Virus record (IMG/VR): IMGVR_UViG_3300025122_000008
Location: 34,426-98,425 of that record
DNA from: a virus
DNA: 64,000 nt
Strand: one strand, 5' to 3'
The position numbers were made by a program, and so were the translations under genes. The notes beneath the pieces are model-generated. The model was not told the origin of the DNA, did not search any database, and saw only the letters and a program-made list of their open reading frames with translations. This document shows, one piece after another, positions 20,965-56,630 of this stretch (the stretch's first letter is position 1; each line of letters opens with the position of its first letter).

Positions 20965-21384
20965 ATGAGCAAATATTCAAGCTTTAAAGAATTTCAATTG
21001 ATAACCGAGAACTGGCGTAAGTATTTCTTGCACGAGACAGTATTGCGCGAGGCCGGCGGAGGCGCAGGCGCTATTCCACACTTTTCGCCTCTTAGTGCAA
21101 CGAAGCCAGGGGAGCGTATTCCGGTACCGGGATCTCAGCGACCCTATGAACAGCGGGATATCGATGGGAATGTTGCCGCTATAGCGGAGGCATTCGCAGA
21201 TGTTGATGAGCGCTTCGAGGCTCTCGTTGCCGTCGTCGCGAAACCCGACGCGGATGGCTACCGAGGCGCCCCACCGGAGTTGTGGGAGTTGCGCAATGCA
21301 ATAGAACTTGCAAGCGCCCGCTTCGCGAGCTTGCAAAATCGTATTGGAGAGGACCCTCGGGCCCCTCGCCTAGAAGAGGAATAA
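20965..21384 (+). CDS. Hypothetical protein with LITENWRKY...ETVLRE leader (putative internal head protein)
   Basis: Leader shared with 55671-56630 and 21389-21856; lies two genes upstream of the prohead protease. Confidence 0.55.
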   Translation: MSKYSSFKEFQLITENWRKYFLHETVLREAGGGAGAIPHFSPLSATKPGERIPVPGSQRPYEQRDIDGNVAAIAEAFADVDERFEALVAVVAKPDADGYRGAPPELWELRNAIELASARFASLQNRIGEDPRAPRLEEE

Positions 21385-21460
21385 AACCATGGCACGTTAT
21401 AAAAAAAATGTAAAAAGAATAGACCCAAGATACTTCTTGAACGAGACAGTATTGCGGGAA
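21022..21460 (+). repeat. 30-bp direct repeat at 21022-21051 and 21431-21460 encoding YFL(H/N)ETVLRE
   Basis: TATTTCTTGCACGAGACAGTATTGCGCGAG versus TACTTCTTGAACGAGACAGTATTGCGGGAA, 26/30 identical. Confidence 0.8.
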
Positions 21461-21856
21461 GGGGATGAGGCTGCACTTGCCCAAGCCGGCGAGGAAGCAC
21501 TCGCAGATATGGGTGAAGAGGGAATCCTTGCCCAGCTGGGGCAACTGCCTCCAGAAACGCAGGCAGAAATCCAGGCAGCTGCAGCAGCTACGGCAGAAGA
21601 AGCCTCACAAATGAACGAATCCGGGGAACTTGATGATTCATATCTCGCCGGCCCTCGGGGAAGCGCAATGGCCACCGGCGGCGTTGCCGGCGCAGGACTT
21701 GGCGCCGCTGCCGGAGCAGTAACTTCATCTCTTATGAGTCTTGCCACCGCCAATGCGGTGGGAACTGTGCTTGGCGCCGCTGCCTTTGGCGCCTCCGGTG
21801 GAATTATCGCAGCTGCCGTCTATATTCTGGCTAAGAGGATGCTCCAAGGGAAATAA
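21389..21856 (+). CDS. Hypothetical protein with C-terminal glycine-zipper hydrophobic hairpin (putative internal head protein)
   Basis: YFLNETVLRE leader; GGVAGAGLGAAAGAV...GTVLGAAAFGASGGIIAAAVYIL. Confidence 0.55.
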   Translation: MARYKKNVKRIDPRYFLNETVLREGDEAALAQAGEEALADMGEEGILAQLGQLPPETQAEIQAAAAATAEEASQMNESGELDDSYLAGPRGSAMATGGVAGAGLGAAAGAVTSSLMSLATANAVGTVLGAAAFGASGGIIAAAVYILAKRMLQGK

Positions 21857-21859
21857 ACA

Positions 21860-22459
21860 ATGGCACAACTTCTCCGAGAATACTATGAACTATGCGAAGG
21901 CGGCGTCTGTCAGGATCTTCTGACGGAGGATGAAAAACGCTTTGTTCGTGATGGTGGTATGATGTTATCGGGGATGATGCAGATGGCAGAGACCCAAAAC
22001 GGCAATGGTCGCGTGTATCCTCAAGCAATATTGGAGAGAGAAGTTAAAAATTATAAAAAATTAGTAAAAGATAAGCGCGCCTTGGGCGAACTTGATCATC
22101 CGGAAGATTCCGTTATTAATCTTAGAAATGTTTCTCATCAAATTACTGATATCTGGATGGACGACAATAAAGTTATGGGCAAAATGAAGGTATTGGACAC
22201 GCCTTCCGGCGGCATCCTTCGTTCACTGGTTGATTCCGGTGTTTCTATAGGCATTTCTTCAAGGGGACTCGGTTCGGTTACCGAGAACGCCGGCAAGACC
22301 ATTGTCGAGGACGACTTTCAGTTGATTTGTTTTGATATGGTTTCTGAACCATCAACCCCGGGCGCATTTATGATGAGAGAGAACAAAAATAGAATTGAAG
22401 AAATTTTTACCAAGGCGGATCGAATTAATCGTGCTTTAAACGAAGTATTAGAGGAATAA
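21860..22459 (+). CDS. Prohead core protease (T4 gp21-like)
   Basis: NGNGRVYP, ALGELDHP, VSH, LDTPSG, GISSRGLGS, FDMVSEPS. Confidence 0.95.
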   Translation: MAQLLREYYELCEGGVCQDLLTEDEKRFVRDGGMMLSGMMQMAETQNGNGRVYPQAILEREVKNYKKLVKDKRALGELDHPEDSVINLRNVSHQITDIWMDDNKVMGKMKVLDTPSGGILRSLVDSGVSIGISSRGLGSVTENAGKTIVEDDFQLICFDMVSEPSTPGAFMMRENKNRIEEIFTKADRINRALNEVLEE

Positions 22460-22462
22460 GAG

Positions 22463-24973
22463 ATGAGTTCAGCTATGATTTTAACCGAGTCACAAATTAA
22501 GGAAGCCATAAGAGAGGAGTTCGCCAAAAGCGGCGTAATTCTCACCGAGGAAGAGCTTAACGAACTGTTTGGAATGTTCGGTAAGAGTAAGTTAATTAAA
22601 CAAATTAAAAAGTTAGATCCCGACGGCAAAGCCATGGATAAGCTGGGATACGATGCGGAAGAGGTTTTTGCCGGCCGCGCTGGCTCGGGCACGATTAAAG
22701 CAATATTGGCCGATCTTAAAAGTGAGGTTGGAGAACCCGAGGAAGAGGATGATCGCGGCTTCGTTAAAAAAGGCCTCGCGCGTATGCGCGGCGCTCTTGA
22801 TATCTTAGATCCGCGAAGTGAAGCTGGAACTCTCCTTGGTGGCGATGAAGTTTTCGACATGAAGAAGCGTCGACAATTGATGGGCGATGCTAAAGCGGCC
22901 CTTAAAGATACACTGAGTAAACTGAGGAAGGTCGACCCTGAGGGCTCCAACCAATTAAAGAAATTGCGCATGGCGTTGGAAAAGAATGGTTTTCCAAATA
23001 TGCGCGGCAATGGCAATTTCAAGACAGCTGCGACTGATATTGATATTGCTTATGATCAAATTATAAAAGATTTCGAAGAAAAGAAAATTGATTGTACGAC
23101 AGCTAATGTTCGCATCGCGGTGTTGCGCTATATAGTTATTTATTACCAAGATTTCCGAATGGGGGATCAATATTATTACCGAAACGAGGCGTTGACGCCC
23201 GAAGATTTGATACTTTTGACGGAAGAAGAACAAGAACAGCTTGGTGTGAAACAGGGTGCGGCCGCCAAGGGTTATGAAACCGCATATGGTATGAAGTTTC
23301 CTAAAGTCCTCGCTGCTGTGGGCGTCGGCGCATTGGCCGCAGGCTTTTTAGCGGACTCAGACTTTTTCCAGAATCTTTTAGAAAGATTCAAAGATGTGGA
23401 CGAAATCACGGATACCAAGATAATCAAAGATACGGTCATCGAAGTCTCCGGCCTAGGCGAAATTGAGAGCGGCGAAGGTATCATCAAAGTTGTTCGTCGG
23501 CTTGGTGGCGAATCGATGAAAAACTTTGGCCGTTCAGGTGGACCCGGAATGGCTGAGCTGGGCGATCCCAAATATAGTTTAGTGGTCAAGTTACTTGGTG
23601 CTGCCATGATGTCCAAGCAGGGCCCGGGCGCCCTTCAGCAAGCAATTCAGCAAAACGCTGATCCTGTAAAATTATTTATTAGCGGGCCCGCCTCGGGGAC
23701 CGGCCGCGCCGGAGAAGAACTATTTGGACTCAACAAAGGCGTTTTTGAGGAGAATCTATCAAAGGTTATCGAGGACAAGACAGAAACTTTTCTAAAGGTC
23801 CCAGCAAAAACTCTTAAAAATAAATTTTTGAGCGGATTGGGTGAATTTGCCGGTCCGGTTCTTAAGGCCCTCGGCCTCAGCGCTCTAGCCGGCGCCGGAG
23901 CTTCCGCGGCGATGCGTTATAGTGGTAAAGGTGAGGGAAGATTCGCTTTGGGCTCGCGCATGTCCTTCCTTAAGAAAAAAGTTGATGAGATGGAAGACGT
24001 CCCCTGCAAGGAGACGGAAGAACCCAAGTGCCCTGATGGATCTGATCCTCCCTGTAAGGATGAGCCCCCGCCACCACCGGGCGAATGCAGCGACGAAGAA
24101 AAAGAACAAGGTAAAGTTTGGAACCCGGGTACCGGCAAGTGCGAATGTCCCGAAGATCAAGCCTTCAACGACGAGACCGGCAAGTGTGAAGAGAAGAAGC
24201 CCGACTGTGATCCTGACACTCAAATGGTCGACCCCGATACGGGCGAGTGCATTGATATACCCAAGTGTCCCGACGGCACCGTTTATAATCCCGCGACCGG
24301 CAAATGCCGTCGCCCCAGACAGTTGGTTCAGCCGCAACGTTTAGAGATTACGATATACAGTGAGATAGTCGGAAAACCTGGCCGACCTTCGGTAGAAAAG
24401 GTTGTTCGCGAATTCGGCGCCGCAAATGGATACAAGATCGATGATGAGAACTTAGAAGATACATTAGGAAAGATTGAGCAATGGGTTGAGTGGACGAATT
24501 TGCGGGCTTATGGTTTGCCTCGAAACGCGAAGGCCCAGCCCGTGAACCCGAAGGCGCTTCTAGGTCTAAAGGAAGACAATCCGCTAAACGAGTTGTCACC
24601 CGCTCCAGGCTCGGAAGGGGAAGAGACAGAAAAAGATCCGCAGAATAGTTTCATGCCTCGTTCAAAGAGTGATGTTCGTGATGGAAAAATCTTAATCTTT
24701 GTTAAGAAAAATGGAAAAGGAAAAATAAGAAGAAGTTTGCGCAATTTCCTTTTTACTAATATTTTTATGAGCCAAGGCCAAGATACTCCATTTGATAGAC
24801 CGCTAGATCGCAAGGATGCAAAAGCGCTGGCAATTGCTATAGGTGACTTTGTTTTTGATGAACTTCAGCAACAAGGTGGAGAAGTTGTGCAACAACAACA
24901 GCAACAAGAGGCGAAGCAATTGTCCGAATCGTTACAGCTTAATCGATGGAAGGTGTTAGCGGGTATAAAATGA
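22463..24973 (+). CDS. Large head-module protein with two hydrophobic segments and Cys-rich repeats
   Basis: N-terminal LTESQIKEAIREE/LTEEELNE, hydrophobic VLAAVGVGALAAGFLA and VLKALGLSALAGAGASAAM, four C-x(n)-TG(K/E)C repeats, C-terminal LNRWKVLAGIK. Confidence 0.6.
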   Translation: MSSAMILTESQIKEAIREEFAKSGVILTEEELNELFGMFGKSKLIKQIKKLDPDGKAMDKLGYDAEEVFAGRAGSGTIKAILADLKSEVGEPEEEDDRGFVKKGLARMRGALDILDPRSEAGTLLGGDEVFDMKKRRQLMGDAKAALKDTLSKLRKVDPEGSNQLKKLRMALEKNGFPNMRGNGNFKTAATDIDIAYDQIIKDFEEKKIDCTTANVRIAVLRYIVIYYQDFRMGDQYYYRNEALTPEDLILLTEEEQEQLGVKQGAAAKGYETAYGMKFPKVLAAVGVGALAAGFLADSDFFQNLLERFKDVDEITDTKIIKDTVIEVSGLGEIESGEGIIKVVRRLGGESMKNFGRSGGPGMAELGDPKYSLVVKLLGAAMMSKQGPGALQQAIQQNADPVKLFISGPASGTGRAGEELFGLNKGVFEENLSKVIEDKTETFLKVPAKTLKNKFLSGLGEFAGPVLKALGLSALAGAGASAAMRYSGKGEGRFALGSRMSFLKKKVDEMEDVPCKETEEPKCPDGSDPPCKDEPPPPPGECSDEEKEQGKVWNPGTGKCECPEDQAFNDETGKCEEKKPDCDPDTQMVDPDTGECIDIPKCPDGTVYNPATGKCRRPRQLVQPQRLEITIYSEIVGKPGRPSVEKVVREFGAANGYKIDDENLEDTLGKIEQWVEWTNLRAYGLPRNAKAQPVNPKALLGLKEDNPLNELSPAPGSEGEETEKDPQNSFMPRSKSDVRDGKILIFVKKNGKGKIRRSLRNFLFTNIFMSQGQDTPFDRPLDRKDAKALAIAIGDFVFDELQQQGGEVVQQQQQQEAKQLSESLQLNRWKVLAGIK

Positions 24974-25428
24974 ACAAGACGGAATTAAAAAAACTTTTAA
25001 AACCACTCATAAAAGAATGCATAAAGGAGGTGATGTTTGAAGATGGCGTTCTTTCAAAGGTAGTTTCGGAGGTGGCTCAAGGTATATCAGCCCCTCGGCT
25101 TGTTGAATCACAAAGTTCTGTAACAAAGATACAAAAAGATGAACAGAGTCAGCAGACAAATCTAATGAAAAGATCTACAGAACAGACAAAAAATAAATTT
25201 AATAAACGTCGACAAAAATTAATGACGGCCATCGGAAAAGATGCCTATAACGGCATTGATCTTTTCGAGGGTACTGCGCCGCTATCCTCAGGAGGAAACA
25301 CCAGCAATGCAGTAACCCCGCAGGGGCCCTTGGCTAATATCTCTTCCGGCGATCCCGGGGTCGATATTAATAATTTGTTAGGAAACGTGGGGGCACACTG
25401 GAAAGCTCATATGGATTCTGGAAGTTAG
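24970..25428 (+). CDS. Hypothetical head-module protein
   Basis: Likely start ATG 24970 (ATAA overlap), MNKTELKKLLKPLIKECIKE leader. Confidence 0.6.
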   Translation: MNKTELKKLLKPLIKECIKEVMFEDGVLSKVVSEVAQGISAPRLVESQSSVTKIQKDEQSQQTNLMKRSTEQTKNKFNKRRQKLMTAIGKDAYNGIDLFEGTAPLSSGGNTSNAVTPQGPLANISSGDPGVDINNLLGNVGAHWKAHMDSGS

Positions 25429-25437
25429 AGGTGAAAA

Positions 25438-25653
25438 GTGGCAATTAATGTATCAGTTCATCGTAAACACAATGAGAGTACGGAACGCTTAATTAGACGA
25501 TTTATTAAAAAAGTTAAGCGAGAGGGCGTTTTAACGAAATATAGAGAACGTTGTTCTTATTATATAAAACCGGCCGTCAAAAGAAAGATAAAATCAGAAA
25601 AAGCTCGTCGAGAGCGTGAGCGCGTAGAAAGAAAGCGCAATAAAAGGAAATAG
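25438..25653 (+). CDS. rpsU: Ribosomal protein bS21
   Basis: 71 aa, highly basic: V...NESTERLIRRFIKKVKREGVL...RER..YYIKPAVKRKIK; SD GAGGTG. Confidence 0.9.
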   Translation: MAINVSVHRKHNESTERLIRRFIKKVKREGVLTKYRERCSYYIKPAVKRKIKSEKARRERERVERKRNKRK

Positions 25654-25696
25654 TTATAATTTGAGACTATTTAAAACAGTTTGGAGTTAGGTACAT

Positions 25697-26143
25697 ATGA
25701 CACAACAATATAAAGTAGGATTACACAACGTTGGATCTTATCAGGTTTCTGGTAAACCATTCGCCACAGGGTCTATAGATTGTCGCACCGGTGTTACAGG
25801 AGTTGGACAGATTGATTTCCCACAGGTGACCTCGTGGGTAATGATATCCAATCACGATAGCGGCAATCGTAATGTCAGGGTGGGATTTTCAAGCAAGGGG
25901 GTGTTGGGTTCGAATACAGAACAGGGGAACAGATTTATAGAAGTTCCCTCCACTAGCGGATCGGGCCCCGTTCGACTTGATTTAAAATTAACTCAGCTTT
26001 TTGTTAGTGGTTCCGATAACGTTTCTGTTGTTGCTGGCCTTACATTTATCAGTACGGGATCTATTAATAACATAGCTATCTCCCCGGCAGCCGATGAAGG
26101 GTCTCACGTTGGTAAGAACTGGTCCGGATCTACGGGAATATAA
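25697..26143 (+). CDS. Putative virion structural or decoration protein
   Basis: Late box ACTATTTA at 25666-25673; beta-rich with TGS/SGS motifs. Confidence 0.5.
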   Translation: MTQQYKVGLHNVGSYQVSGKPFATGSIDCRTGVTGVGQIDFPQVTSWVMISNHDSGNRNVRVGFSSKGVLGSNTEQGNRFIEVPSTSGSGPVRLDLKLTQLFVSGSDNVSVVAGLTFISTGSINNIAISPAADEGSHVGKNWSGSTGI

Positions 26144-26149
26144 TCGATC

Positions 26150-28945
26150 ATGGCCGGTTGGGCATTCGTCAATGTCGATCTTGCTTCGGGTAGCGGGCCT
26201 ACTGGTTCTGTACAGTATCACGTTGAGGGAAGAGGAGTTTCCGGTAGTGAACAATTTATGTTTCACACCGCTTCGGTGCATGGTTATGCAGCAAATACCT
26301 TAGTTTTAACCGGAGCCCTTGTTGTATCTGGTGCGATTAGCGCCAGTAGTTATACAATAAAAGACATCACACATATTGATGTATCTGGTTCAACCAGATT
26401 TGGTGATGATGCCGGCGACTCTCACATATTCACCGGTAGCCTATATGTGTCAAACACATCATCTCTTTCTTCGATAGCCGTATCGAGTTCTATTTCCGGC
26501 TCAAGCACCCTGCAGGCCGTCGGAGCCACCACTTTGGGAGGCACATTAGGTGTTAGCGGTAATGTTGGCATCGGAACTGCCACCCCGGGCGGCCCACTTC
26601 ATGTATATAAAGCGGCTGCCAACCAAGACCACACACCCATGGAATTACTGAGACTGGAGCAGCAAGATGAAGGCGTTGACATGGCCGCTGGACACGGACC
26701 TGCCATTACTTTTTACGTTGGAGAAACTGCCGGCTCGGATCACGGCGGCAGTGTGGCGGTTGTTAGAGAAGAGCAAGGCGATGCGGATTCTGCTGCTGCC
26801 ATGTCCTTTTATACTGCGGCCGATGATAGTGCCCCAACAGAAAAAATGCGAGTTACCAGTACTGGCAAAGTCGGCATCGGAACGACAAGTCCGACCGACA
26901 CACTTACTGTCGTTGGTACGGTTTCTGGCTCCTCAACTTTACAGGCAGTCGGAGCCACCACTTTGGGAGGTGCCCTGAATGTTTCTGGAGCCAGCACACT
27001 CAAGGGGGCCATTTCTGGCGCATCCACATTGCAAGCTGTTGGTGCTACTGTTTTGGGAGGCGCCCTGAATGTTTCTGGCGCTGTTACGATGGCTGGTGGG
27101 CAATCTCTCATCTATGGCAACGCAAACGCCAAAATTACCAACAATGGTACTAACCTTGATATTAATTCCCCCGGCCTTATTAACCTTAACGCTGGTAACC
27201 CGGCCATTGTTTCAAGCTCTGATGGGCTGCAAATAGTTAGTGACTCCATCTTTGGTGGAAGACTGAAGGTTTCTGGAGCCAGCACACTCAAGGGGGCCAT
27301 TTCTGGCGCATCCACATTGCAAGCTGTTGGTGCTACTGTTTTGGGAGGCGCCCTGAATGTTTCTGGCGCTGTTACGATGGCTGGCGGGAATGCACTCATT
27401 TATGGCAATGCAAACGCCAAAATTACCAACAATGGCACCAATCTAGATATTAATTCACCAGGCCTCATTAACCTTAACGCTGGTAACCCGGCCATTGTTT
27501 CAAGCTCTGATGGGCTACAAATAGTTAGCGATTCCATCTTCGGCGGAAAACTGCAGGTAAGCGGCGCCCAGTCCTGGGCTGCAAAGGTTTCAAGTTCAGC
27601 CGGCGCAGAAATTGTGGGTAACTCGATATTCGTCGGTAATCTCGCCACTTCGGGTACCTTCACATCGAAGGGCGATACACAATTGGCTGCAGCAGGCGTT
27701 GGCACGACTGTCAACGGCGACCTCACGGTCGCTCAACCGGCTACTTTCCAAGATAGTATTAGCGGCTCTTCAACCTTACAAATGGTTGGTGCTTCCATCT
27801 TTGGTAACAACCTTAGTGTTTCGGGTACCTTCACATCGAAGGGCGATACACAATTGGCTGCAGCCGGCGTTGGCACTACTGTCAACGGTGACCTCACGGT
27901 CGATCAAGGGGCTACTTTCAGTTCCACTTTGACACTCGCCGGCAAACTTTCGAGTTCTGCTGCGATGGAAGTTGTTGGTGCTACTGTTTTGGGAGGTGCC
28001 CTGAATGTTTCTGGCACTGTTACGATGGCTGGTGGGCAATCTCTCATCTATGGCAACGCAAACGCCAAAATTACCAACAATGGTACTAACCTTGATATTA
28101 ATTCCCCCGGCCTTATTAACCTTAACGCTGGTAACCCGGCCATTGTTTCAAGCTCTGATGGGCTACAAATAGTTAGCGATTCTATCTTCGGCGGAAAGCT
28201 CAACGTAAGTGGCGCAATGGTCGTGGCAGGCATTTCCGGCTCAAGCACCCTGCAGGCCGTCGGAGCCACCACTTTGGGAGGTGCCCTAAATGTTTCTGGA
28301 GCCAGCACATTCAAGGGGGCCATTTCTGGCGCATCCACATTGCAAGCTGTTGGTGCTACTGTTTTGGGAGGTGCCCTAAATGTTTCTGGCACTGTTACGA
28401 TGGCTGGTGGGCAATCTCTCATCTATGGCAACGCAAACGCCAAAATTACCAACAATGGCACCAATCTAGATATTAATTCACCAGGCCTCATTAACCTTAA
28501 CGCTGGTAACCCGGCCATTGTTTCAAGCTCTGATGGGCTACAAATAGTTAGCGATTCTATCTTCGGCGGAAATCTGGACGTCAGTGGCGGGATGTCCATT
28601 GGTGCTTCGTCTGCCAATCAAGTGAATGTCAAGGCTGCGATCGCTTTCGCTGGCCCCGAGGCACATAAGTTAGGTACGATTACAGCAGCTGCCGAACTCA
28701 CCGCATCGACATCGAGGTCTTATCAGATTGTTAGTGGCGGGGCGAGCGCTGTTACAGTTATTTTGCCCTCCGCTAGTAACTACAACTACACGTATATGAT
28801 TAAGCGCCACTCGCTTATGAGTGGGAATGTTGTGATTGAAGGCGGTGGATCCGAGAAGGTTGATGGAAGTGCAAATAAAACTTTGTCTTCTGCTGGGGAC
28901 GCTGTGTTCTTGATCTCTGATGGTACTCGGTGGAATACCTTCTAG
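26150..28945 (+). CDS. Long fibre protein built from internal repeats
   Basis: GSVQY N-terminal motif, GNVGIGT and GKVGIGT repeats, multiple near-identical modules, C-terminal VTVILPSA...IKR...DG...LISDGTRW domain. Confidence 0.75.
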   Translation: MAGWAFVNVDLASGSGPTGSVQYHVEGRGVSGSEQFMFHTASVHGYAANTLVLTGALVVSGAISASSYTIKDITHIDVSGSTRFGDDAGDSHIFTGSLYVSNTSSLSSIAVSSSISGSSTLQAVGATTLGGTLGVSGNVGIGTATPGGPLHVYKAAANQDHTPMELLRLEQQDEGVDMAAGHGPAITFYVGETAGSDHGGSVAVVREEQGDADSAAAMSFYTAADDSAPTEKMRVTSTGKVGIGTTSPTDTLTVVGTVSGSSTLQAVGATTLGGALNVSGASTLKGAISGASTLQAVGATVLGGALNVSGAVTMAGGQSLIYGNANAKITNNGTNLDINSPGLINLNAGNPAIVSSSDGLQIVSDSIFGGRLKVSGASTLKGAISGASTLQAVGATVLGGALNVSGAVTMAGGNALIYGNANAKITNNGTNLDINSPGLINLNAGNPAIVSSSDGLQIVSDSIFGGKLQVSGAQSWAAKVSSSAGAEIVGNSIFVGNLATSGTFTSKGDTQLAAAGVGTTVNGDLTVAQPATFQDSISGSSTLQMVGASIFGNNLSVSGTFTSKGDTQLAAAGVGTTVNGDLTVDQGATFSSTLTLAGKLSSSAAMEVVGATVLGGALNVSGTVTMAGGQSLIYGNANAKITNNGTNLDINSPGLINLNAGNPAIVSSSDGLQIVSDSIFGGKLNVSGAMVVAGISGSSTLQAVGATTLGGALNVSGASTFKGAISGASTLQAVGATVLGGALNVSGTVTMAGGQSLIYGNANAKITNNGTNLDINSPGLINLNAGNPAIVSSSDGLQIVSDSIFGGNLDVSGGMSIGASSANQVNVKAAIAFAGPEAHKLGTITAAAELTASTSRSYQIVSGGASAVTVILPSASNYNYTYMIKRHSLMSGNVVIEGGGSEKVDGSANKTLSSAGDAVFLISDGTRWNTF
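26981..28571 (+). repeat. Intragenic repeat array in the fibre gene
   Basis: 288-bp tandem unit (26981 and 27269); AKITNNGTNLDINSPG module at 27128, 27416, 28064, 28439; SGTFTSKGDTQLAAAG module at 27650 and 27821. Confidence 0.9.
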
Positions 28946-29058: not shown

Positions 29059-30093
29059 ATGTCTTCGTTGTTAAAGCAAGCTATTATAGACGCATCAGCC
29101 TTGAAGGAGGCCGCGCTTAAAAATGCGGAGAGTACAGTTCTAGAAAAGTATTCTTTAGAAGTAAAAGAGGCGCTTTCAACACTTTTGGAACAAGAGGAAG
29201 ATCTTGGCCTAGGTGCTCCCGCCGATACTTCTCCCACAGCCGACGCTTCTTTTATGGACGACGTTCCTCTTGGCCACGAAGACCCAGAGATAGACGGGCC
29301 CGCCGAAGATGAAGTTATTGAAATCGATTTTGATGATTTAAAGGCGCGCCTTCACACGGATGAAGAAGCCGGCGCCGAACCAGAAGCCTCTGAACTATTG
29401 GGATCCGAAGAAACTGCCGAAGAAATTTTTGGGGGTATGGAAGAACCAGAGTTAGCCGCGCCCGCGGGAGCCGAAGAGCCCCTAGCAGAGGAAGTAGAAA
29501 TTAGTGATCAGCTCATCGATGCTATAGCCGAAGAGCTTACAGTCGATGTTGCCGCGAGACTGCAAGGCTGGTCGTCAGCTAACAGCGCCCAGACTCTGGA
29601 ACAAGAAGAAGAGGCGGCCCTAGAAGAAGAGGCTGCATCACAAGAATCGGAAGAAGTTGCCGAAGAGAAAGAAAAAAACTTAAAACTTTATGAGATTCAA
29701 GTATCGGAATTACAGTCCGAATTGGATGATTTACGTTCTTTGCTTGGAGAAGCAAAGAATCAATTAAATATTTTGATTTTGGAGAATGCCAAACTCCTTT
29801 ATCAGAATAAGGCTTTGAATAGCACCTCCTTGAATGAGCGACAAAAAACAAAGATTGTCGAGGCTGTTCGTAACGCCAACACGGTAGAAGAAATGAAAAT
29901 GTTGTTTGAAACACTTCAAAGCGCAGTGGGGGCTCATCGCGAGCGCCGACCTGAATCACTTCGCGAAGCGGTTAGCAACAAACCAACAACTTCGATGCTT
30001 CTAAGTGGGCACCATGCTTCAAATAGAAGTGATCGTACCTCTACCGTTGATCCAAATATGGATCGAATGTTACGTTTGGCAGGTTTAAAATAA
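29059..30093 (+). CDS. Prohead scaffold/core protein (gp22-like)
   Basis: Directly upstream of the MCP; acidic, coiled coil, NAKLLY, C-terminal RMLRLAGLK; start ATG 29059 after SD AGGAG; late boxes ACTAATTA at 29017 and 29030. Confidence 0.8.
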   Translation: MSSLLKQAIIDASALKEAALKNAESTVLEKYSLEVKEALSTLLEQEEDLGLGAPADTSPTADASFMDDVPLGHEDPEIDGPAEDEVIEIDFDDLKARLHTDEEAGAEPEASELLGSEETAEEIFGGMEEPELAAPAGAEEPLAEEVEISDQLIDAIAEELTVDVAARLQGWSSANSAQTLEQEEEAALEEEAASQESEEVAEEKEKNLKLYEIQVSELQSELDDLRSLLGEAKNQLNILILENAKLLYQNKALNSTSLNERQKTKIVEAVRNANTVEEMKMLFETLQSAVGAHRERRPESLREAVSNKPTTSMLLSGHHASNRSDRTSTVDPNMDRMLRLAGLK

Positions 30094-30139
30094 CTATTTT
30101 ATGATTTTATTTATTTACTATTAGGAGGTTAAATATAAA

Positions 30140-31978
30140 ATGTCTATTGTTGAAAAACTAACTGAAGGCATCGTTAATCGCGATCTCTCCCGAGAGGGCT
30201 CTGCACTTATTTCCAAGTGGGAAAAGACAGGGCTTCTTGAGGGGATCCACGGAGACCATCTTCGCAACGGAATGGCTTGCTTGCTTGAAAATCAAGCGAA
30301 AGAGCTTCTTCGTGAGTCATCCAGCATGCAAGCTGGTGACGTTGAGGGTTTCGCAGCGGTTGCCTTTCCCCTAGTTCGCCGTGTATTCGGCAACTTAATT
30401 GCTAATGATCTAGTGAGCGTTCAGCCCATGAGTTTACCCTCAGGACTGATCTTCTTCCTGGATTTTCTCTATTCCCCCGACAGCGCCGGCGCTAGCGGTA
30501 ATGAAACCCATCGTTTGGGTAACGTTGCTAATAAGTCGATTTTCGGTGGCGGTAGGGTCGGTGGCGAGATCACCGGAGGTGTGGACCTTTCTACTGGGAA
30601 CAACCCAGAAGCAGGCCCGTATGCCCTAAACAACGGCTACGCATCACCGACGGCGTCTCTATCTTCCCTTGTCGGCTCCGATTTTTCGATTATTGCTTCC
30701 GGTACTTGGGGCGATCTGAATACGACTGGAAACCTGAACATCTCTGTTGCCGATAGTACTCATCTTTTGGGTAGTCTAGCTGGCTGGGATGCAGATTTTG
30801 TTTCTGGATCCACTACAGTTGTTGTTGCACAGGTTTCAGCCAGTGAATTCACTGCTGAGGGCGCCGCTCTCAACGTTGATGATTTGGTTGCGATCGCAGT
30901 TTCTGGCGGTGGTGTAGGTGGTGTAGGTGTCCTCGGATGCTCCGGCAACGACGCCGGTACCAACGGTGCTCGTTTGATTCGTCGCTTGACGCAGTATAGT
31001 TCTGCTTCATTGAAGGGTCCCGTGGGTGATCGTAGCTCAACTAGTCTTTTGATGACGTTCGCCTCGCGAGACGGCGCCGTGTCGGTCACACAGCTTAAGC
31101 TTCAGGTTACTGGAAACTCTGATTCCACCTGGACACAGCCCGAGACTGACGACTTCGATGCCGGTACTGGACTTGGTTCCCTTAAGGGTGGAACCGAGTG
31201 GGGCTTGGAGGCTGAGGCTGCCATTCCCGAGATCGACATCAAGGTCGATTCGATTGCCGTTACCGCGGTTACCAAGAAGCTCAAGGCTAAGTGGACTCCG
31301 GAATTGGGACAAGATCTCAATGCCTACCACAACCTTGATGCCGAGGTCGAGTTGACTCAGATTTTGTCTGAGCAAATTGCTCTTGAAATCGATCGCGAGA
31401 TTCTAGAAGACCTCGTACGTGGTTCTACAGCGGGTACCCGCTATTGGTCACGTGCTGCCGGTCGATTCTTGAATCGAGAGACTGGTGTCGAGATTGGTGC
31501 TAGCACCGTTACTCCCGACTTCACCGGTAACGTTAGTGAGTGGTATGAGACTCTCATTGAGACCCTCAATGATGTTTCTGCACAGATCCATCGTAAGACT
31601 CTTCGCGGTGGTGCCAACTTCGTCGTCTGCGGACCCGAAGTTGCCAACATTCTTGAGTTTACGGCTGGCTTCCGTGCCAATGTGACCGCTGATAGCGATC
31701 GCGGTACGATTGGTGCAGTTAAGACTGGTAGTCTCTCCAAGAAGTGGGACGTCTATGTTGACCCCTATTTCCCGCGTAGCCTCGTGCTGGTGGGTCGTAG
31801 AGGCGGCAGCTTCCTAGAGAGCGGATATGTATACGCTCCCTATGTGCCACTGCAGACCACCCCGACTATCTTCGGCGTTGAAGATTTCGTGCCCCGTAAG
31901 GGAGTCATGACCCGATATGCCAAGAAGATGGTTCGTCCAGATATGTATGGACTAGTTGTCGTTCGCGATCTAGTTTAA
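30140..31978 (+). CDS. Major capsid protein (T4 gp23-like)
   Basis: LLENQ, PLVRRVF, VSVQPMSLPSGLIF, KKLKAKWTPELGQDLNAYH, EIDREI, YAPYVPL, PRKGVMTRY. Confidence 0.97.
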   Translation: MSIVEKLTEGIVNRDLSREGSALISKWEKTGLLEGIHGDHLRNGMACLLENQAKELLRESSSMQAGDVEGFAAVAFPLVRRVFGNLIANDLVSVQPMSLPSGLIFFLDFLYSPDSAGASGNETHRLGNVANKSIFGGGRVGGEITGGVDLSTGNNPEAGPYALNNGYASPTASLSSLVGSDFSIIASGTWGDLNTTGNLNISVADSTHLLGSLAGWDADFVSGSTTVVVAQVSASEFTAEGAALNVDDLVAIAVSGGGVGGVGVLGCSGNDAGTNGARLIRRLTQYSSASLKGPVGDRSSTSLLMTFASRDGAVSVTQLKLQVTGNSDSTWTQPETDDFDAGTGLGSLKGGTEWGLEAEAAIPEIDIKVDSIAVTAVTKKLKAKWTPELGQDLNAYHNLDAEVELTQILSEQIALEIDREILEDLVRGSTAGTRYWSRAAGRFLNRETGVEIGASTVTPDFTGNVSEWYETLIETLNDVSAQIHRKTLRGGANFVVCGPEVANILEFTAGFRANVTADSDRGTIGAVKTGSLSKKWDVYVDPYFPRSLVLVGRRGGSFLESGYVYAPYVPLQTTPTIFGVEDFVPRKGVMTRYAKKMVRPDMYGLVVVRDLV

Positions 31979-33840: not shown

Positions 33841-34771
33841 AAAAACGCAAAGACAATTACAAAACAAGCATGCTGATCGCTTTGACTATATGAACAGTGC
33901 TGAGACTGAAGCAAAAGTTCATGAAATAATAATGCAGCCATCAACTTTGGAGACAATTGATTATGCTTTTTATGATTTTGTTAATGAAGTTTTAAATCTG
34001 TCAACGACCACCAACGAAGGATTTAAGAAAGTGCCTATTATTTGGGCGTCCACAGAACGAGCTTTTCAGCTTAAGAACGATAAAGAGTTAAGAGATTCTG
34101 ATGATGGCCTTATTTTGCCTCTTATGGTTATAGAGCGAAAAAGCGTTGTTAAAGATGCTGCGAAGAGGGGCCTTCCGTGGGCGAATATTATGCCCGTTAA
34201 CGACGAAAAGGGGGGCACGATTACGATTGCCAGACAACTCAACCAGAAAAAAACCTCCCAGTTCCAAAATAACTTGGCCGGCAGAAAATTTAGTAATGGT
34301 CGCGTTAACTCTTCGATGCATGCAACGAATAAACGAAACATGAAGGCAGGTAAAAATGTTTTTGAGACTATCACCATACCTTTGCCTACGTGGGTGACGG
34401 TATCGTACGAGGTTAGTCTGAGGACGGAGTATCAACAGCAAATGAACGATCTTGTTCAGCCATGGGTTACTATTTCGGGCAATAGTACAATGCCGCCTCG
34501 CATTGAAAAAGATAATCACAAATTTGAGGTATTTATTGATGCCTCGTACGCCAACAATAGCAACACGGGTAATATGGAGATGGCACAACGGAATTATGAA
34601 ACCACTATAACCGCAAATGTGTTGGGATATTTAATTGGCGAAGGGCCCAACCAGGAACGTCCAAAGATAGTAAAGCGTCAAAATGCTGTTGAATTTCGTT
34701 TTGCCAGAGAGCACGTTATAATGGGGGACCCCCACGAAGATATTGATAGCAGAGGATTTTATAGAGAATAA
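33830..34771 (+). CDS. Tail terminator/sheath stabiliser (gp15-like)
   Basis: KVPIIWASTER, LPLMVIER, P..VTVSYEVSL...QMNDLVQ. Confidence 0.7.
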   Translation: MVTRKTQRQLQNKHADRFDYMNSAETEAKVHEIIMQPSTLETIDYAFYDFVNEVLNLSTTTNEGFKKVPIIWASTERAFQLKNDKELRDSDDGLILPLMVIERKSVVKDAAKRGLPWANIMPVNDEKGGTITIARQLNQKKTSQFQNNLAGRKFSNGRVNSSMHATNKRNMKAGKNVFETITIPLPTWVTVSYEVSLRTEYQQQMNDLVQPWVTISGNSTMPPRIEKDNHKFEVFIDASYANNSNTGNMEMAQRNYETTITANVLGYLIGEGPNQERPKIVKRQNAVEFRFAREHVIMGDPHEDIDSRGFYRE

Positions 34772-48401: not shown

Positions 48402-48406
48402 AAAAG

Positions 48407-49774: not shown

Positions 49775-49783
49775 GGGGCCTTT

Positions 49784-50971: not shown

Positions 50972-50990
50972 TGTATCGGAAAGAAGAATA

Positions 50991-51848: not shown

Positions 51849-51882
51849 TCGTACTCTAGCCTAACAACAAGGAGAAAATATT

Positions 51883-52677: not shown

Positions 52678-52744
52678 CGTAGTTTTCCAATCCCCACAGG
52701 GAGGCACAGGGTTATCAGGTGTCTCAAAAAATAAAAAATATAGG

Positions 52745-52773
52745 TTGACATACGCGCCCTTAACGGGTATGAT
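52745..52773 (+). promoter_or_regulatory. Strong sigma70-type promoter
   Basis: TTGACA, 17 nt spacer, TATGAT, with an A-rich UP-like tract upstream (52726-52740). Confidence 0.8.
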
Positions 52774-52802
52774 TAAGATATAACCGATTGGAACCCCCCA
52801 CA

Positions 52803-54404
52803 ATGAGTGATAAATCTATGGACACCACCCCCGATGTAGAAAAATTGTTTGATATGATTTTTCCCTCCCTCGGATACACCTCTGAGTATGCTATAGGAGA
52901 TGTTTTTGACAACTCAGCGGATGCTGGCGCTGCCGAGATAGTATTGACTATCGTAGAGGCCGCTGAGACCGCCCAGATCGATAGCCTGGTGTTTGCAGAC
53001 AACGGGAAGGGCATGGGCCAGGAGATCCTCCAACAAGCATGCCGTTTCGCTGGTACGGCCGAGCACTCGCCTGAGGATTTAGGCAAGTATGGAATGGGCG
53101 GAACAGCAGCTTCATTTTTTCTAGCCAAAACGAAGTGCATTCTTACTAAGACAACAGATGGAGAGCTGCTCGGAGCGCAGGTAGATATCAATAACCGCAG
53201 CGCTCTCACTTTTCAGAATATTGCAGAGTTTATTAATATTAGCGAAGACTGTGAAAAGATATTTTATAAGTTTTTGCCGGGCGGGGAAGACCAAGAATCC
53301 GGTACGGTGATTTATCTGACGAATATCCGTAACGAGCGGCTAGAGGTTGAGACCGCCGTCCTTATGAAGAATCGTCTTGTAAAATTTTTGAGCGAAAGCT
53401 TTCGGCCCCTTATCGATGCGGGTATGAAGATTATCATTGAAGTACTTAAGAAAGGGGGGAAAGGCCTTAAGACGTCAGATGTCGTTGGAGGGTACGATCC
53501 CCTTTATCGTGATCATCCAGACTGCGTAGTCGAAAGCGGGTCGGAAGAAGTTGAATTCAAAGACTCTTCCATCGCTTTTAATTATTCTCTTTTGAAGCCT
53601 CGGGAATGTTCCCGGGTTGATAGAGAACGCGGCCGCCGTAATAAAGGGGGCGATGAGAGCAAGGCCATGGTGCTGGGGACTGGAGGTTATTTAATTCGCG
53701 GGCGCCGTCAAATTGTTGGCGCCTCCACTCTTTCGGGATTGTGGGGTCGAGATCCTCAGCTGTGCAACGCACGATTTGAGGTGATTTTTACTAGCGAACT
53801 AGATGATCATTTTGGTGCGACTGCACAAAAAAATAAAACCAACCTAAGTGCCGAGTTGAAAGCGGTCCTGAGACCAGTTGTCCAGAAGCTTAAGCGTCGT
53901 ACGCGATTGCGCTGGAGCACTCCTTCCAAGAAGAACACTCAGAAGGTTGCAGCTGTTGAAGCTCGCGAAATCAAAAAGATTGTAGATCCTAAAAACGCTG
54001 GGAGCATAGGAATTCCGAAGAGAAAACCTACTCCAAATCCTGCTGGAGGCCGCGGGCCCGATAAGGGCAAACGCTCGGCTAAGAAAAACTCCGGCACTGG
54101 CACCAACAAGCCCTATAAGAAAATACTTACGCGCCATGTTAGTGCTCCGATGCCGGGTTCTCACCCCTGGTGGTATGACTTCGATAATAATGGAGAAATA
54201 GTTATTTGTATTAATGACGCACATCCGTATATTAAAGAATTTTATACACGAGCCAGTGATGAAACTCAAACGGCGCTGCTAAGAAACTGGTTCGCTGGTT
54301 CGCTGGCAGAGCATAAATTTTATGAAACTGAGACAGCTGATCATCTTAGCTCGTATAAGAATGAATATGCTAACAGTTTGATGGCCATTTGCGTGGCCAA
54401 GTAA
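52803..54404 (+). CDS. GHKL (MORC/HATPase_c_3-like) ATPase
   Basis: AIGDVFDNSADA (N box), DNGKGM (G1), GKYGMG (G2), SGTVIYL; S5-like domain with TAQKN; C-terminal INDAHPY. Confidence 0.85.
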   Translation: MSDKSMDTTPDVEKLFDMIFPSLGYTSEYAIGDVFDNSADAGAAEIVLTIVEAAETAQIDSLVFADNGKGMGQEILQQACRFAGTAEHSPEDLGKYGMGGTAASFFLAKTKCILTKTTDGELLGAQVDINNRSALTFQNIAEFINISEDCEKIFYKFLPGGEDQESGTVIYLTNIRNERLEVETAVLMKNRLVKFLSESFRPLIDAGMKIIIEVLKKGGKGLKTSDVVGGYDPLYRDHPDCVVESGSEEVEFKDSSIAFNYSLLKPRECSRVDRERGRRNKGGDESKAMVLGTGGYLIRGRRQIVGASTLSGLWGRDPQLCNARFEVIFTSELDDHFGATAQKNKTNLSAELKAVLRPVVQKLKRRTRLRWSTPSKKNTQKVAAVEAREIKKIVDPKNAGSIGIPKRKPTPNPAGGRGPDKGKRSAKKNSGTGTNKPYKKILTRHVSAPMPGSHPWWYDFDNNGEIVICINDAHPYIKEFYTRASDETQTALLRNWFAGSLAEHKFYETETADHLSSYKNEYANSLMAICVAK

Positions 54405-54414
54405 GGAGAAGAAC

Positions 54415-54540
54415 GTGGAATTATTACCCGCATTTGCATTTTTTCTGGGGGCCGGCTATCTTGTTTATCGCTTGGCGCGCCTGGACGCTCAGATTGAACA
54501 CTTGAAGAAAAGAATAGAGGATCTTAATGGCTCGGAGTAA
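54415..54540 (+). CDS. Small single-TM coiled-coil protein (41 aa)
   Basis: GTG after SD AAGGAG; MELLPAFAFFLGAGYLVYRLARLDAQIEHLKKRIEDLNGSE; overlaps the recA start; not in the ORF track. Confidence 0.55.
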   Translation: MELLPAFAFFLGAGYLVYRLARLDAQIEHLKKRIEDLNGSE

Positions 54541-55642
54541 ATCAACCGCCGGAAAGGTTTCCATAGGAGACCTTCGAACTCTTATTAACAAAACCTCTGG
54601 CATGGAGGTGGCCTATAATCTTAATGATGAAAACCCCACCGAAGTAAAGGAGTGGATTCCTACCGGGTCACGATGGCTTAATAGCATTATTCGTCGAGGA
54701 CAATTGGCCGGAATTCCAATTGGAAAAATCTCAGAAATTGCTGGCCTAGAGGCAACAGGCAAATCATTTATGGCAGCACAAATAGCCGGGAATGCGCAGA
54801 AGATGGGCATGGCCGTGGTGTATATGGATGCAGAGTCGGCTATCGACCCCTCGTTCTTAGAACGCGCAGGCTGTGATCTAGATGAACTTATCTATGTTCA
54901 GGTCCAATCTGTTGAGCAAGTACTTGAAACTATTGAGAGTATTCTTAATAGCGGAGCGGAGAGAACCTTGTTTATCTGGGATTCACTCGCCCTTACACCG
55001 TCCATTTCTGATGTAGAGGGCGATTTCAACCCTCAATCATCCATGGCAGTGAAGGCTCGCATTCTTGCGAAAGGAATGTCAAAGCTTACTATCCCCATAG
55101 CGAACAGTCAATCTAGCTTTCTTGTATTAAACCAGCTTAAAACAAATATTACTCGGTTTCCAGCCGAGGCTATGACAACTCCGTATGTCACTCCGGGCGG
55201 GAAGGCAATGATTTATGCCTATTCACTCAGAATCTGGCTCACGGGTCGCAAGGCTAAGGCAAGTTTTGTACTTGACGACAACGGTTTCCGTATCGGATCC
55301 GAGGTTAAGGTGAAGCTGGAGAAGTCTCGATTCGGAACGCAGGGACGTAATTGTGCCTTTAAGATTCTATGGGGTGAAGAGGTTGGAATTCAGGATGAAG
55401 AGTCTTGGTTCGAAGCCATCAAGGGCTCCGAAAGGATTAAGAGGGCAGGCGCTTGGTATTCTCTCGTATATGAAGATGGCACTGAAGAAAAGTTCATGGG
55501 CTCTCATTGGGTAGGTAAACTTCAAGATGAAAAGTTCCGAAATCGCGTATTAGAGATCATGGATGAAGAAATTATCATGAAGTTTGATAAGCGCATCGGA
55601 GAAGCGGAAGAATTTTATACGCTGGATGGAGAAGAAGAATAA
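54527..55642 (+). CDS. recA: RecA/UvsX-like recombinase
   Basis: IPTGS, GIPIGKISEIAGLEATGKS, DAESA, IWDS, LNQL, TPGGKA, VKLEKSR, GAWY. Confidence 0.93.
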   Translation: MARSKSTAGKVSIGDLRTLINKTSGMEVAYNLNDENPTEVKEWIPTGSRWLNSIIRRGQLAGIPIGKISEIAGLEATGKSFMAAQIAGNAQKMGMAVVYMDAESAIDPSFLERAGCDLDELIYVQVQSVEQVLETIESILNSGAERTLFIWDSLALTPSISDVEGDFNPQSSMAVKARILAKGMSKLTIPIANSQSSFLVLNQLKTNITRFPAEAMTTPYVTPGGKAMIYAYSLRIWLTGRKAKASFVLDDNGFRIGSEVKVKLEKSRFGTQGRNCAFKILWGEEVGIQDEESWFEAIKGSERIKRAGAWYSLVYEDGTEEKFMGSHWVGKLQDEKFRNRVLEIMDEEIIMKFDKRIGEAEEFYTLDGEEE

Positions 55643-55647
55643 CCGAG

Positions 55648-55657
55648 ACTATTTATA
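55648..55657 (+). promoter_or_regulatory. Putative late promoter box ACTATTTATA inside the replication module
   Basis: Matches the structural-gene box; followed by SD GGAG. Confidence 0.6.
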
Positions 55658-55670
55658 GTGGAGTACCCCT

Positions 55671-56630
55671 ATGAAACTTGTAATGGAAAACTGGCGTAGA
55701 TACTTGAATGAACAAGACGAACCTATGTCAATGAAAAATCTTCTGGGTGCCAAGTACACACAGTTTGTTCAATGGCTCGGGAACAATATCCAAGACCCAA
55801 AAACGCAGGCTCTTATTGGCGCTGGCTTAGAGGATGGCGATCCGAGCGATGATAAATTTGGATTTGAAAATGTTGCGATTCCTGTTGCAAAACTCAAACC
55901 CACTCAAAATGAGATTGATATTAATAAATCTTTGGCCTATCCACTCGTTAAGGACCCGGCCCAATTTATAGAAAAAGTTGCAAGCAATGGTCCATTTACA
56001 GTAGTCGAACGAATTGTGACTTTTAACGGGCAATATGTTATCGACGGCCACCATCGATGGTCAACAGTATATGCTTGCAATAAAAATGCATCAATTGAGG
56101 CAGTAAACATAACAATTGCGGACGTCGACCCCCTTGATGCCCTAAAGGCCGTCCAAATGGCCATCGGACTTCAGGCAAAGAAAATTCCCATCCAAAGTGT
56201 GGAGGGGTCAAATTTGTTGGACATAGATGAAACGCAACTTAAACAGTGGATCATGAAAAATGTTCCTATAAAAACATCACAAACAATATGGAAGGCCGGT
56301 AAAGGATTTATTGAAAAACTCAAACAAGAAGGTGGCACCGCTCAAAGTCACCCATCGGGCAAAGAATCACCACACGGCGCGCAGGATTCTGAAATAACCG
56401 AACGGCTGTTATCTGAAATTTCACAAAATAGATTTCACAAAATGGTGGTTACACAAATCTTGCCGGCATATATCTGGTCAAATGTAGCCTCAATGCGACA
56501 AACTTCACAACCCGTCCCCGGCGCCGGCTCGCGCGACTTTATGCCCCAGACTGGTGGCATTGCATGGAAAGAGCCACTTGCGCAGGGGCAAGTTGACGTT
56601 AAACCGCCGTTCGCCAAGGTAGCTGAATAA
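55671..56630 (+). CDS. ParB/Srx-fold protein with MKLVMENWRRYLNE leader
   Basis: LKPTQNEID...YVIDGHHRW ParB-N-like motif; leader shared with 20965-21384. Confidence 0.7.
   Translation: MKLVMENWRRYLNEQDEPMSMKNLLGAKYTQFVQWLGNNIQDPKTQALIGAGLEDGDPSDDKFGFENVAIPVAKLKPTQNEIDINKSLAYPLVKDPAQFIEKVASNGPFTVVERIVTFNGQYVIDGHHRWSTVYACNKNASIEAVNITIADVDPLDALKAVQMAIGLQAKKIPIQSVEGSNLLDIDETQLKQWIMKNVPIKTSQTIWKAGKGFIEKLKQEGGTAQSHPSGKESPHGAQDSEITERLLSEISQNRFHKMVVTQILPAYIWSNVASMRQTSQPVPGAGSRDFMPQTGGIAWKEPLAQGQVDVKPPFAKVAE

Follow-up and report, generated by a model that had tools for sequence, protein, structure and literature searches.

Short terminal peptides shared by unrelated proteins of an uncultured marine T4-like phage as candidate capsid-targeting tags

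Genes and terminal peptides at the locus

The window analysed here is a stretch of 64,000 nucleotides (positions 34,426 to 98,425 of the IMG/VR record IMGVR_UViG_3300025122_000008) from an uncultured marine T4-like phage, in which the genes for a prohead protease, a scaffold and a major capsid protein are accompanied by several open reading frames with shared terminal peptides (Table 1). The same tag system was found in hundreds of relatives, and no nucleotide match to the region was found among GenBank phages. An earlier note had described these peptides; all those that it quoted were recovered at their positions, and the gene starts that it assigned to ORFs 24970 and 29059 are correct.

Table 1. 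Coordinates of the genes and sequence features discussed (positions in the window)
Feature	Position	Strand	Remarks
Conserved 16-codon micro-ORF	20891..20941	+	Upstream edge of the putative cargo slot before the protease
ORF 20965, 139 aa	20965..21384	+	First ~24 residues form a long-form ENWR leader; body near-orphan
ORF 21389, 155 aa	21389..21856	+	RIDPRYFLxET-type leader; C-terminal glycine-rich hydrophobic segment
T4 gp21-type prohead serine protease (Peptidase_S77)	21860..22459	+	Pfam PF03420, E 1.4e-31; PHROG 207, E 2e-56
ORF 22463, 836 aa	22463..24973	+	Variable slot after the protease; diverged LKQIIxEE-type leader at residues 5-21
RWxxLAGIK tail of the 836-aa protein	24938..24970	+	C-terminal peptide of ORF 22463
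ORF 24970, conserved 152-aa protein	24970..25428	+	After the protease in all relatives; N-terminus weakly leader-like
gp22-like scaffold	29059..30093	+	DRMxRLAG(I/L)K tail in the last 11 residues (30058-30090)
gp23-type major capsid protein	30140..31978	+	Pfam Gp23, E 8.5e-70
ORF 40016, 123 aa	40016..40387	+	Tail module; listed as tagged in the earlier note
CTATTTA promoter-like motif	55649..55655	+	22 nt before ORF 55671; same motif before structural genes
ORF 55671, predicted ParB/Srx-fold protein, 319 aa	55671..56630	+	Short ENWR leader (helix 2-14), then linker, then body

The leader match proposed between ORFs 20965 and 55671 was borne out by an ENWR profile built from relatives only, which recovered both proteins among 353 six-frame ORFs (E 2.6e-4 and 1.6e-8, respectively; next match 0.73). 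Across the entire 98-kb contig, translated in six frames, NWR[KR][YF] occurs just twice, at the N-termini of these two ORFs. In ORF 20965 the leader has the long-form layout, with aromatic residues at positions 4 and 7, followed by ENWRK and then YFLHE. The second peptide reported, YFL(H/N)ETVLRE in ORFs 20965 and 21389, is common to the two at nine of its ten residues, while the best score among all 55 N-termini was 6 or 7 in each of 25 shuffles. Because 24 of the 25 bases under this patch agree, also at synonymous sites, it represents a recent copy rather than convergence. At the other terminus, a profile of the LAG(I/L)K tail, again derived from relatives only, found the scaffold (3e-6) and ORF 22463 (1.3e-4), in both cases at the last residues, in agreement with the C-terminal match described for this pair.

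The helical leaders that were said to recur in ORFs 22463, 24970 and 40016 fared unequally. ORF 22463 matches the LKQIIxEE leader with E 2e-6 for the full profile and 0.035 for the relatives-only profile. ORF 24970 was the top match of an independent leader profile, at a weak E of 0.06; as a tagged protein it is doubtful, and its product is likely a core component. For ORF 40016 the leader profiles gave E values above 4, and it was rejected as a tagged protein.

That these resemblances are due to chance or to the ordinary paralogy of neighbouring genes is hardly credible as a general explanation, even though the tags are short and ORFs 20965 and 21389 are adjacent. Chance is countered by the relatives-only profiles, the shuffles and the six-frame controls, and paralogy by the lack of pairwise similarity among the bodies (E above 1). 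This explanation is refuted for the ENWR, YFLxETVLRE and LAG tags, and for ORF 40016 it still stands.

ORFs 20965, 21389 and 24970 had no match in Pfam or PHROG, and ORF 22463 had only incidental ones. The latter protein has Cys repeats, one hydrophobic segment and an L-S-E immediately before its scaffold-like tail; together with the glycine-rich hydrophobic tail of ORF 21389 and the predicted fold of ORF 55671, this agrees with the payload types named earlier. Hydrophobic segments such as those of ORFs 21389 and 22463 are unusual for soluble core proteins and count against packaging of these two products.

Leader families and the bodies they head

Three types of N-terminal leader were distinguished by comparison across relatives: ENWRxFLxE (in short and long forms), LKQIIxEE and RIDPRYFLxET. 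In 80 related contigs, no fewer than 20 unrelated protein bodies begin with one of them, almost always from residue 1. The leaders end in [LIV]-x-E, so that the L/I-x-E motif of T4 gp21 is indeed carried by the leader ends. Each complete genome has roughly 5-14 tagged genes. [LIV]-x-E is also a common tripeptide, which weakens the argument that it marks a cleavage site.

A search of 80 related loci gave 48 significant matches to the ENWR leader, every one of them on the coding strand and 42 with a start within residue 12; the 46 tagged proteins fall into 20 unrelated body clusters. The tryptophan and the final glutamate are nearly invariant, and [LVI]-x-E lies at a fixed offset in ~70% of 101 instances of the leader. 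The leader of ORF 20965 is identical at 19 of 21 residues to that of a ParB-like protein from another phage and near-identical to those of three unrelated proteins; it recurs on four other bodies. When the leader of ORF 20965 was used alone as a query, a set of 5.8 billion proteins returned only 6 candidates in its length range, and a tblastn search of GenBank phages with a 24-aa leader gave no match.

At least 58 instances of the LKQIIxEE leader were collected, some of them in tandem gene arrays. M1, E14 and E15 are invariant in this family, and I12-x-E14 is therefore fixed. The idea that it mimics the N-terminus of the scaffold was rejected, since scaffold N-termini ranked 104-837 of 1162. 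In relatives, the slot of ORF 21389 holds other bodies with the RIDPRYFLxET leader, which was also seen in a distant array (L027).

On the body of ORF 55671 the leaders are exchanged. Its structural model (pLDDT 91.9) has ParB/Srx proteins as its top six structural matches, with modest Z scores of 4.1-5.5, and Foldseek placed ParB N-domains first (E 7e-3); according to this model, the body has a ParB/Srx fold. The segment from D125 to S131, a loop of DGHHR type, is invariant in 82 sequences. Among 120 such bodies, 49 carry the ENWR leader, at least eight an LKQII-type leader and four an N-terminal copy of the scaffold tail, and an acidic linker always follows the leader. A paralogue with 33% identity to ORF 55671 and a near-identical leader is encoded directly after the protease in one relative (L007). 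The same tags thus head unrelated bodies and are swapped on one conserved body, which is the portability that had been proposed.

Such swapping, together with the 24 of 25 nucleotides common to ORFs 20965 and 21389, would also be expected if the conserved gene starts were mainly recombination linkers for cassette shuffling, with peptide conservation as a functionless by-product. We consider this improbable. Among the leaders of relatives, 35-44% of same-residue codon pairs differ, with third positions the most variable, while the residues are kept, and the leader remains ~67% identical where the body drops to 42%. These comparisons indicate that the leaders are under peptide-level selection; recombination accounts for the spread of the tags and not for their maintenance. 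We regard as very improbable the proposal that a modifying enzyme recognises the leader, in the manner of RiPP systems: a radical-SAM domain was found in only one of four complete leader-bearing genomes and in none of the proteins of the window's contig, and the tagged proteins are large and folded rather than short precursors. Being absent from three of the four complete genomes, a radical-SAM partner of the leaders was rejected.

Protease slots, scaffold tail and promoter motifs

The gene that was taken for a gp21-like protease is a true S77 gene with variable slots on either side in which the leaders cluster; this upholds the statement that tagged genes surround it. Of 75 loci, 34 have nothing between the micro-ORF and the protease and 28 have a filled gap, most of the inserted ORFs carrying a leader. 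Among leader-bearing contigs of at least 25 kb, S77 is encoded in 36 of 56, and in all seven that are complete; this co-occurrence is confounded by descent, because every tagged contig comes from a single group of phages with genomes of ~180-200 kb.

The scaffold tail is found on all 16 scaffolds of the relatives. Of 34 matches to the tail motif in relatives, 23 lie at the extreme C-terminus, comprising the 16 scaffolds and seven other proteins from four body clusters, and all seven are encoded just after the protease. Two further non-scaffold proteins have the tail with short extensions. An [LIV]-x-E just before the tail was present in four of the seven non-scaffold proteins. Given a background of 0.29, this number is not significant, and the candidate was set aside as too weak. 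Among GenBank phages, the scaffold matches those of immuto phages only; the same tail is carried by the scaffolds of two cultured cousins of the clade, Flavobacterium phage immuto and Microcystis phage Mel-JY01, and by that of phage RM378, and is absent from those of T4 and S-SSM7. No paper on Mel-JY01 was found in the literature search, and no virion proteome appeared among the titles and abstracts listed for immuto. The gp23-type major capsid protein, whose L-x-E sites sit where T4 gp23 is cut, is the presumed partner of the tail.

As to the late promoters expected at tagged genes, ORF 55671 has the promoter-like motif of the structural genes although it lies among replication genes, but tagged genes of relatives almost never have one of their own. 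CTAWTTA precedes ORFs 55671 and 40016, and among relatives' genes with an apparent upstream gap, as defined by crude gene calls, a late-type motif of their own was found for 1 of 31 tagged genes versus 120 of 390 untagged ones. The evidence for CTAWTTA as a general mark of tagged genes is mixed. No T4-type TATAAATA promoters were found at tagged genes.

The rarity of this motif at tagged genes is one of several observations that would fit docking of the proteins, through their leaders, on a shared non-capsid partner (for instance the membrane, a chaperone, a host factor or a hub protein of the phage), with action in the cytoplasm and no packaging. Many of the tagged genes are grouped in arrays beside lysis-like and FtsZ-like genes, 6-12 kb upstream of the protease, ORF 55671 is located among replication genes, and the leaders are generic amphipathic helices. 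We judge this explanation unlikely, as it leaves unexplained why one of the interchangeable tags is the scaffold's own tail, why variable slots hug the protease gene and why the protease motif is the invariant end of the leader.

A putative prohead address and its known counterparts

Sequence comparison across relatives characterises the tags as real, portable, interchangeable and terminal; they are conserved at the peptide level and show linkage to the gene for the protease. The interpretation that we favour, and hold to be fairly probable, is that these short peptides are T4-like capsid-targeting propeptides together with a mimic of the scaffold's tail. From this we infer the steps of binding to core or shell, cleavage, packaging and injection. 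The tags would be addresses for the assembling prohead, acting as the T4 capsid targeting sequence does. As an amphipathic helix, the N-terminal leader would hold its protein in the scaffolding core until the S77 protease cuts after the conserved [LIV]-x-E at the leader end, freeing the cargo inside the head, from where it may be injected together with the DNA. RMxxLAG(I/L)K, the scaffold's own tail, is probably the contact of the scaffold with the capsid shell, and additional core proteins whose genes directly follow that of the protease may copy it to be co-built with the scaffold. Recombination at the conserved leader DNA would move the tags from gene to gene.

In a more far-reaching version, which we advance tentatively and hold to be possible rather than probable, this abundant uncultured marine T4-like clade would use a combinatorial address code. 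At least three N-terminal leader families and the scaffold-tail copy, interchangeable and clipped by the protease, would load about a dozen fast-changing effectors per phage for co-injection from plug-and-play slots beside the protease gene, and the ParB/Srx-fold enzyme would recur as cargo across lineages under lineage-specific leaders. If the tags do load cargo, capsid targeting of the T4 kind would not be peculiar to the T-even phages but a general strategy, which abundant phages of the ocean would have greatly expanded. In that case the tags would make it possible to list, from the sequences of uncultured viruses alone, candidates for injected proteins, which are likely to serve in anti-defence or takeover. 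They would also point to the peptide that joins scaffold to shell in far-T4 heads and provide new short tags for packaging foreign proteins in phage capsids, and functional work would do well to begin with the recurring ParB/Srx-fold cargo.

Scaffold C-terminal coat-binding peptides and the cargo-loading peptides of the HK97 protease and of encapsulins bind to the inner side of an HK97-fold shell and can bring further proteins into it. They resemble the present tail in being a short terminal peptide of scaffold or cargo, whereas RMxxLAG(I/L)K is specific to a far-T4 clade, is reused at either terminus and binds the shell only putatively. In the giant phages phiKZ, 201phi2-1 and SPN3US, propeptides of head and inner-body proteins are cut after glutamate by gp21-like proteases (PMC9026906, PMC5694885). 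The likeness lies in the many head-internal proteins processed after a short x-x-E by a homologous protease, with cargo that is ejected; the differences are that the sources consulted do not describe those propeptides as one shared portable leader, that the cleavage motif is another and that these are jumbo phages with inner bodies. A literature search with the tag motif strings found no relevant paper, and the papers found that use the term 'capsid targeting sequence' all deal with T4, P1 or giant phages.

The underlying principle is already known from T4, and the present system looks like an enlarged form of its "load into head, then clip" signal. In T4 the capsid targeting sequence is carried by the internal proteins IPI, IPII, IPIII and Alt and is removed by gp21 (Mullaney and Black 1996, reviewed in PMC9026906, PMC3012670). 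The T4 propeptides are N-terminal, 10-19 residues long and cleaved at L/I-X-E, and residues 4 and 7 are determinants of targeting (PMC9026906). In both systems, proteins that are otherwise unrelated begin with a short peptide that ends in L/I-x-E, an S77 protease is encoded, and the (candidate) cargo genes are hypervariable between relatives. They differ in the leader sequences, with several interchangeable families in the present clade, in the number of tagged genes per complete genome (~5-14 versus four in T4), and in the extra tag copied from the scaffold C-terminus, a tail that T4 gp22 does not have. Packaging is established for T4 and predicted from sequence for the clade described here. 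The leaders have no overall similarity to the T4 capsid targeting sequence; the long ENWR leaders and those of T4 ipI and ipIII have in common an FKEF-like stretch and aromatic residues at positions 4 and 7.

Terminal tags in the window

The window makes up the right-hand part (64 kb) of a viral contig of 98 kb whose estimated completeness is 53%, and its source is an uncultured marine T4-like myovirus. Pfam matches in this region include the large terminase, a gp20-type portal, an S77 prohead protease and a gp23-type capsid protein, as well as RecA, a dCMP deaminase, a FEN-type exonuclease and a DnaB-like helicase. The capsid proteins nearest to that of the window come from Flavobacterium phage immuto, Microcystis phage Mel-JY01 and Rhodothermus phage RM378, with ~42-51% identity across the aligned portion. 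No DNA-level match to any GenBank phage was found.

An earlier note proposed that otherwise unrelated proteins of this phage share short terminal tags, and all the peptides it quoted were present where it had placed them (ORFs are named by their window start). The ENWR tag (ENWRxFLxE) common to 20965, upstream of the protease gene (21860-22459), and 55671, a 319-aa ParB/Srx-fold protein, was borne out: across all six frames of the contig its core was found at two places, each of them the start of an ORF, and a profile built from relatives only retrieved 55671 (E 1.6e-8) and 20965 (E 2.6e-4), with no other match below 0.7. The likeness of the C-termini of the gp22-like scaffold (29059) and of 22463, an 836-aa protein encoded downstream of the protease, likewise held with a relatives-only tail profile (E 3e-6 and 1.3e-4, respectively). 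The ten-residue stretch common to 20965 and its neighbour 21389 scored 9/10, compared to 6-7 in shuffles, and the underlying DNA is identical at 24 of 25 bases, indicating a recent intragenomic copy. Of the helical leaders proposed, the one on 22463 is a diverged member of the LKQIIxEE family, linked to the consensus by the L002 orthologue, that of 24970 (152 aa) gave a weak match (E 0.06), and 40016 (123 aa) failed the profile search and was rejected as a leader-bearing protein. These tags are the edge of a much larger set seen across relatives.

Leaders and scaffold tail in related phages

Relatives of the protease are encoded on at least 598 IMG/VR stretches, of which the best 80 (73-93% identity) were taken with their flanks. 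Among these, the ENWR leader gave 48 significant matches, all on the coding strand and nearly all at the extreme N-terminus, either in a short form that begins at residue 1 or in a long form with about ten residues added; most of the few exceptions contain a Met further in that is likely the true start. The LKQIIxEE leader is commoner (at least 58 instances), its M1, E14 and E15 never vary and its L8 and I12 hardly do, and it is often found on three or four successive small genes. The RIDPRYFLxET leader, the type present on 21389, occurs on differing bodies, both in the slot of 21389 and in a distant array. All three leaders terminate in [LIV]-x-E, after which comes an acidic stretch. The ENWR-tagged proteins (n = 46; 95-577 aa) fall into 20 body clusters unrelated by BLAST. 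Chance or paralogy is a very improbable source of the tags, as the tagged bodies lack similarity to one another.

Within the leaders, 35-44% of same-residue codon pairs differ, with third positions most variable; residues are thus kept while codons drift, which shows selection on the peptide. Although the DNA-identical patch in 20965 and 21389 shows that recombination spreads tags, this drift makes it improbable that they are purely recombination linkers. We also considered a RiPP-like leader, but pairing with a radical-SAM enzyme did not hold across complete genomes, three of four of which lack radical-SAM genes, so that this option appears hardly plausible. One LKQII-leader protein of 117 aa (L028:799-1152) also possesses a C-terminal module of ~35 residues that is conserved on its own and recurs, 76-92% identical, on many further contigs (including loci L238-L268); this suggests a second portable piece.

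Leaders are also exchanged on one and the same body, that of 55671, for which 188 metagenome homologues were found. Their conserved body begins ~25 residues in, whereas the N-termini vary: ENWR in both forms (49/120), LKQII-type (at least eight), a copy of the scaffold tail (four), a MIKLxxLL-type leader and several other forms. The leader of 20965 is identical at 19 of 21 residues to that of one of these ParB-like homologues and was also found on three more unrelated proteins. In the short-form ENWR members of the family the leader is 67% identical, compared to down to 42% for the body. The confident structure model of 55671 (pLDDT 91.9) predicts the leader as a helix at residues 2-14, then a lower-confidence linker and the body, and its six top structural matches (SerK, SbnI, sulfiredoxin, KorB, PadC and Atu1540; Z 4.1-5.5) all have the ParB/Srx fold; these scores are modest, but the predicted assignment is coherent with the invariant DGHHRWS loop of the family. 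Some ParB/Srx-like homologues (P0091, P0096) open instead with a small common domain of ~45 residues, which also opens an unrelated protein adjoining a protease gene (L221:12809-13549) and may be another cargo adaptor.

The core motif of the scaffold tail, RxxxLAG(I/L)K, was located at the extreme C-terminus in 23 of 34 matches, comprising 16 gp22-like scaffolds and seven other proteins. The latter belong to four unrelated clusters, each encoded immediately downstream of the protease, and several carry an N-terminal leader too. In immuto, Mel-JY01 and RM378 the scaffold ends with this motif, which the scaffolds of T4 and cyanophage S-SSM7 lack, indicating that the tail is old in this far-T4 branch; judging from these sequences, it was subsequently copied from the scaffold onto other proteins.

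Gene slots and promoters

Tagged genes are concentrated less than 1 kb from the protease gene and, further upstream, in arrays at 6-12 kb. Of 75 loci, 34 have a micro-ORF directly adjoining the protease gene, and another 28 carry an insert of 250-1200 nt between the two; most ORFs in these inserts have leaders. In the window this slot is occupied by 20965 and 21389, and the slot downstream of the protease by 22463; in locus L007 the downstream slot holds a 55671 paralogue (33% identical) with a near-identical leader. Complete genomes carry 2-9 ENWR and 3-5 LKQII leaders. S77 is encoded on 36 of the 56 leader-bearing contigs of at least 25 kb, including all seven complete ones, and the leader-bearing contigs without it are fragments of 18-59%.

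The micro-ORF has two adjacent cysteines and overlaps the stop of a Cys-rich membrane protein gene (20566-20898). Its last 14 residues are near-invariant in 76 of the 80 loci, and no element close to the protease is better conserved. It may encode a free-standing peptide or extend the membrane protein through a frameshift.

Features of the window near tagged and structural genes
Feature	Window position	Strand	Remarks
CTAWTTA motif	3091, 25667, 29018, 29031, 32033, 34793, 38322, 39986, 55649	+	upstream of structural genes
Two proteins, 274 aa and 168 aa	19243-20566	+	between portal and protease
Micro-ORF, 16 codons	20891-20941	+	conserved in 76/80 related loci
bS21 ribosomal protein homologue	25438-25653	+	Pfam E 1.9e-9
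931-aa fibre-like protein, long internal repeats	26150-28945	+	between protease and scaffold

The motif CTAWTTA lies 22-62 nt upstream of the genes for scaffold, tail sheath, tail tube and other structural proteins, and of its 18 copies on the plus strand 12 lie in intergenic DNA, which makes up 2.5% of the window; the motif is likely a late-promoter element. It also precedes 55671, a gene flanked by replication genes that have sigma-70-like promoters (upstream of 52788 and 56703). Among the tagged genes of relatives, 31 appear to have a gap upstream, and the motif was found at only one of these. Most tagged genes lie within operons, and the gene calls in relatives are crude; the promoter evidence on late timing is mixed.

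The T4 precedent and neighbouring head genes

In T4, internal proteins have N-terminal propeptides of 10-19 residues that direct them to the core, with gp21 cleaving after L/I-X-E; residues 4 and 7 of this capsid targeting sequence (CTS) are determinants of targeting, and the sequence has been proposed to enable T4-like phages to package varied proteins (PMC9026906; PMC3012670). Aromatics occupy positions 4 and 7 in both the T4 internal-protein leaders examined and the long ENWR leaders. Taken as a whole, the leader sequences are not similar to the CTS. Because the leaders are terminal, end in the protease motif, are interchangeable with the scaffold tail, occupy slots beside the protease gene and co-occur with S77, they probably load cargo and are clipped in the manner of the CTS, with a mimic of the scaffold tail as an addition. 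In such a system the tags would bind the core or shell and be cut by the protease, and the cargo would be packaged and then injected. Docking of the proteins on a non-capsid partner seems a rather unlikely alternative. The principle is already known from T4. New here are the leader families themselves, how many leaders a genome carries, the way they are freely exchanged on a single body, the second use of the scaffold tail and the defined insertion slots; a literature search retrieved no publication on them.

The 274-aa and 168-aa proteins gave no family match and might be components of the core or receptors of the tags; both are conserved among the marine relatives that were compared, and the former has homologues in immuto and Mel-JY01. 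The very basic bS21 homologue lies in the head module between protease and scaffold, a position kept in relatives and in Mel-JY01, and both a ribosomal role and a head-internal protein are candidate readings. Finally, the location of the fibre-like gene is unusual for a fibre gene, and relatives carry one to several there.
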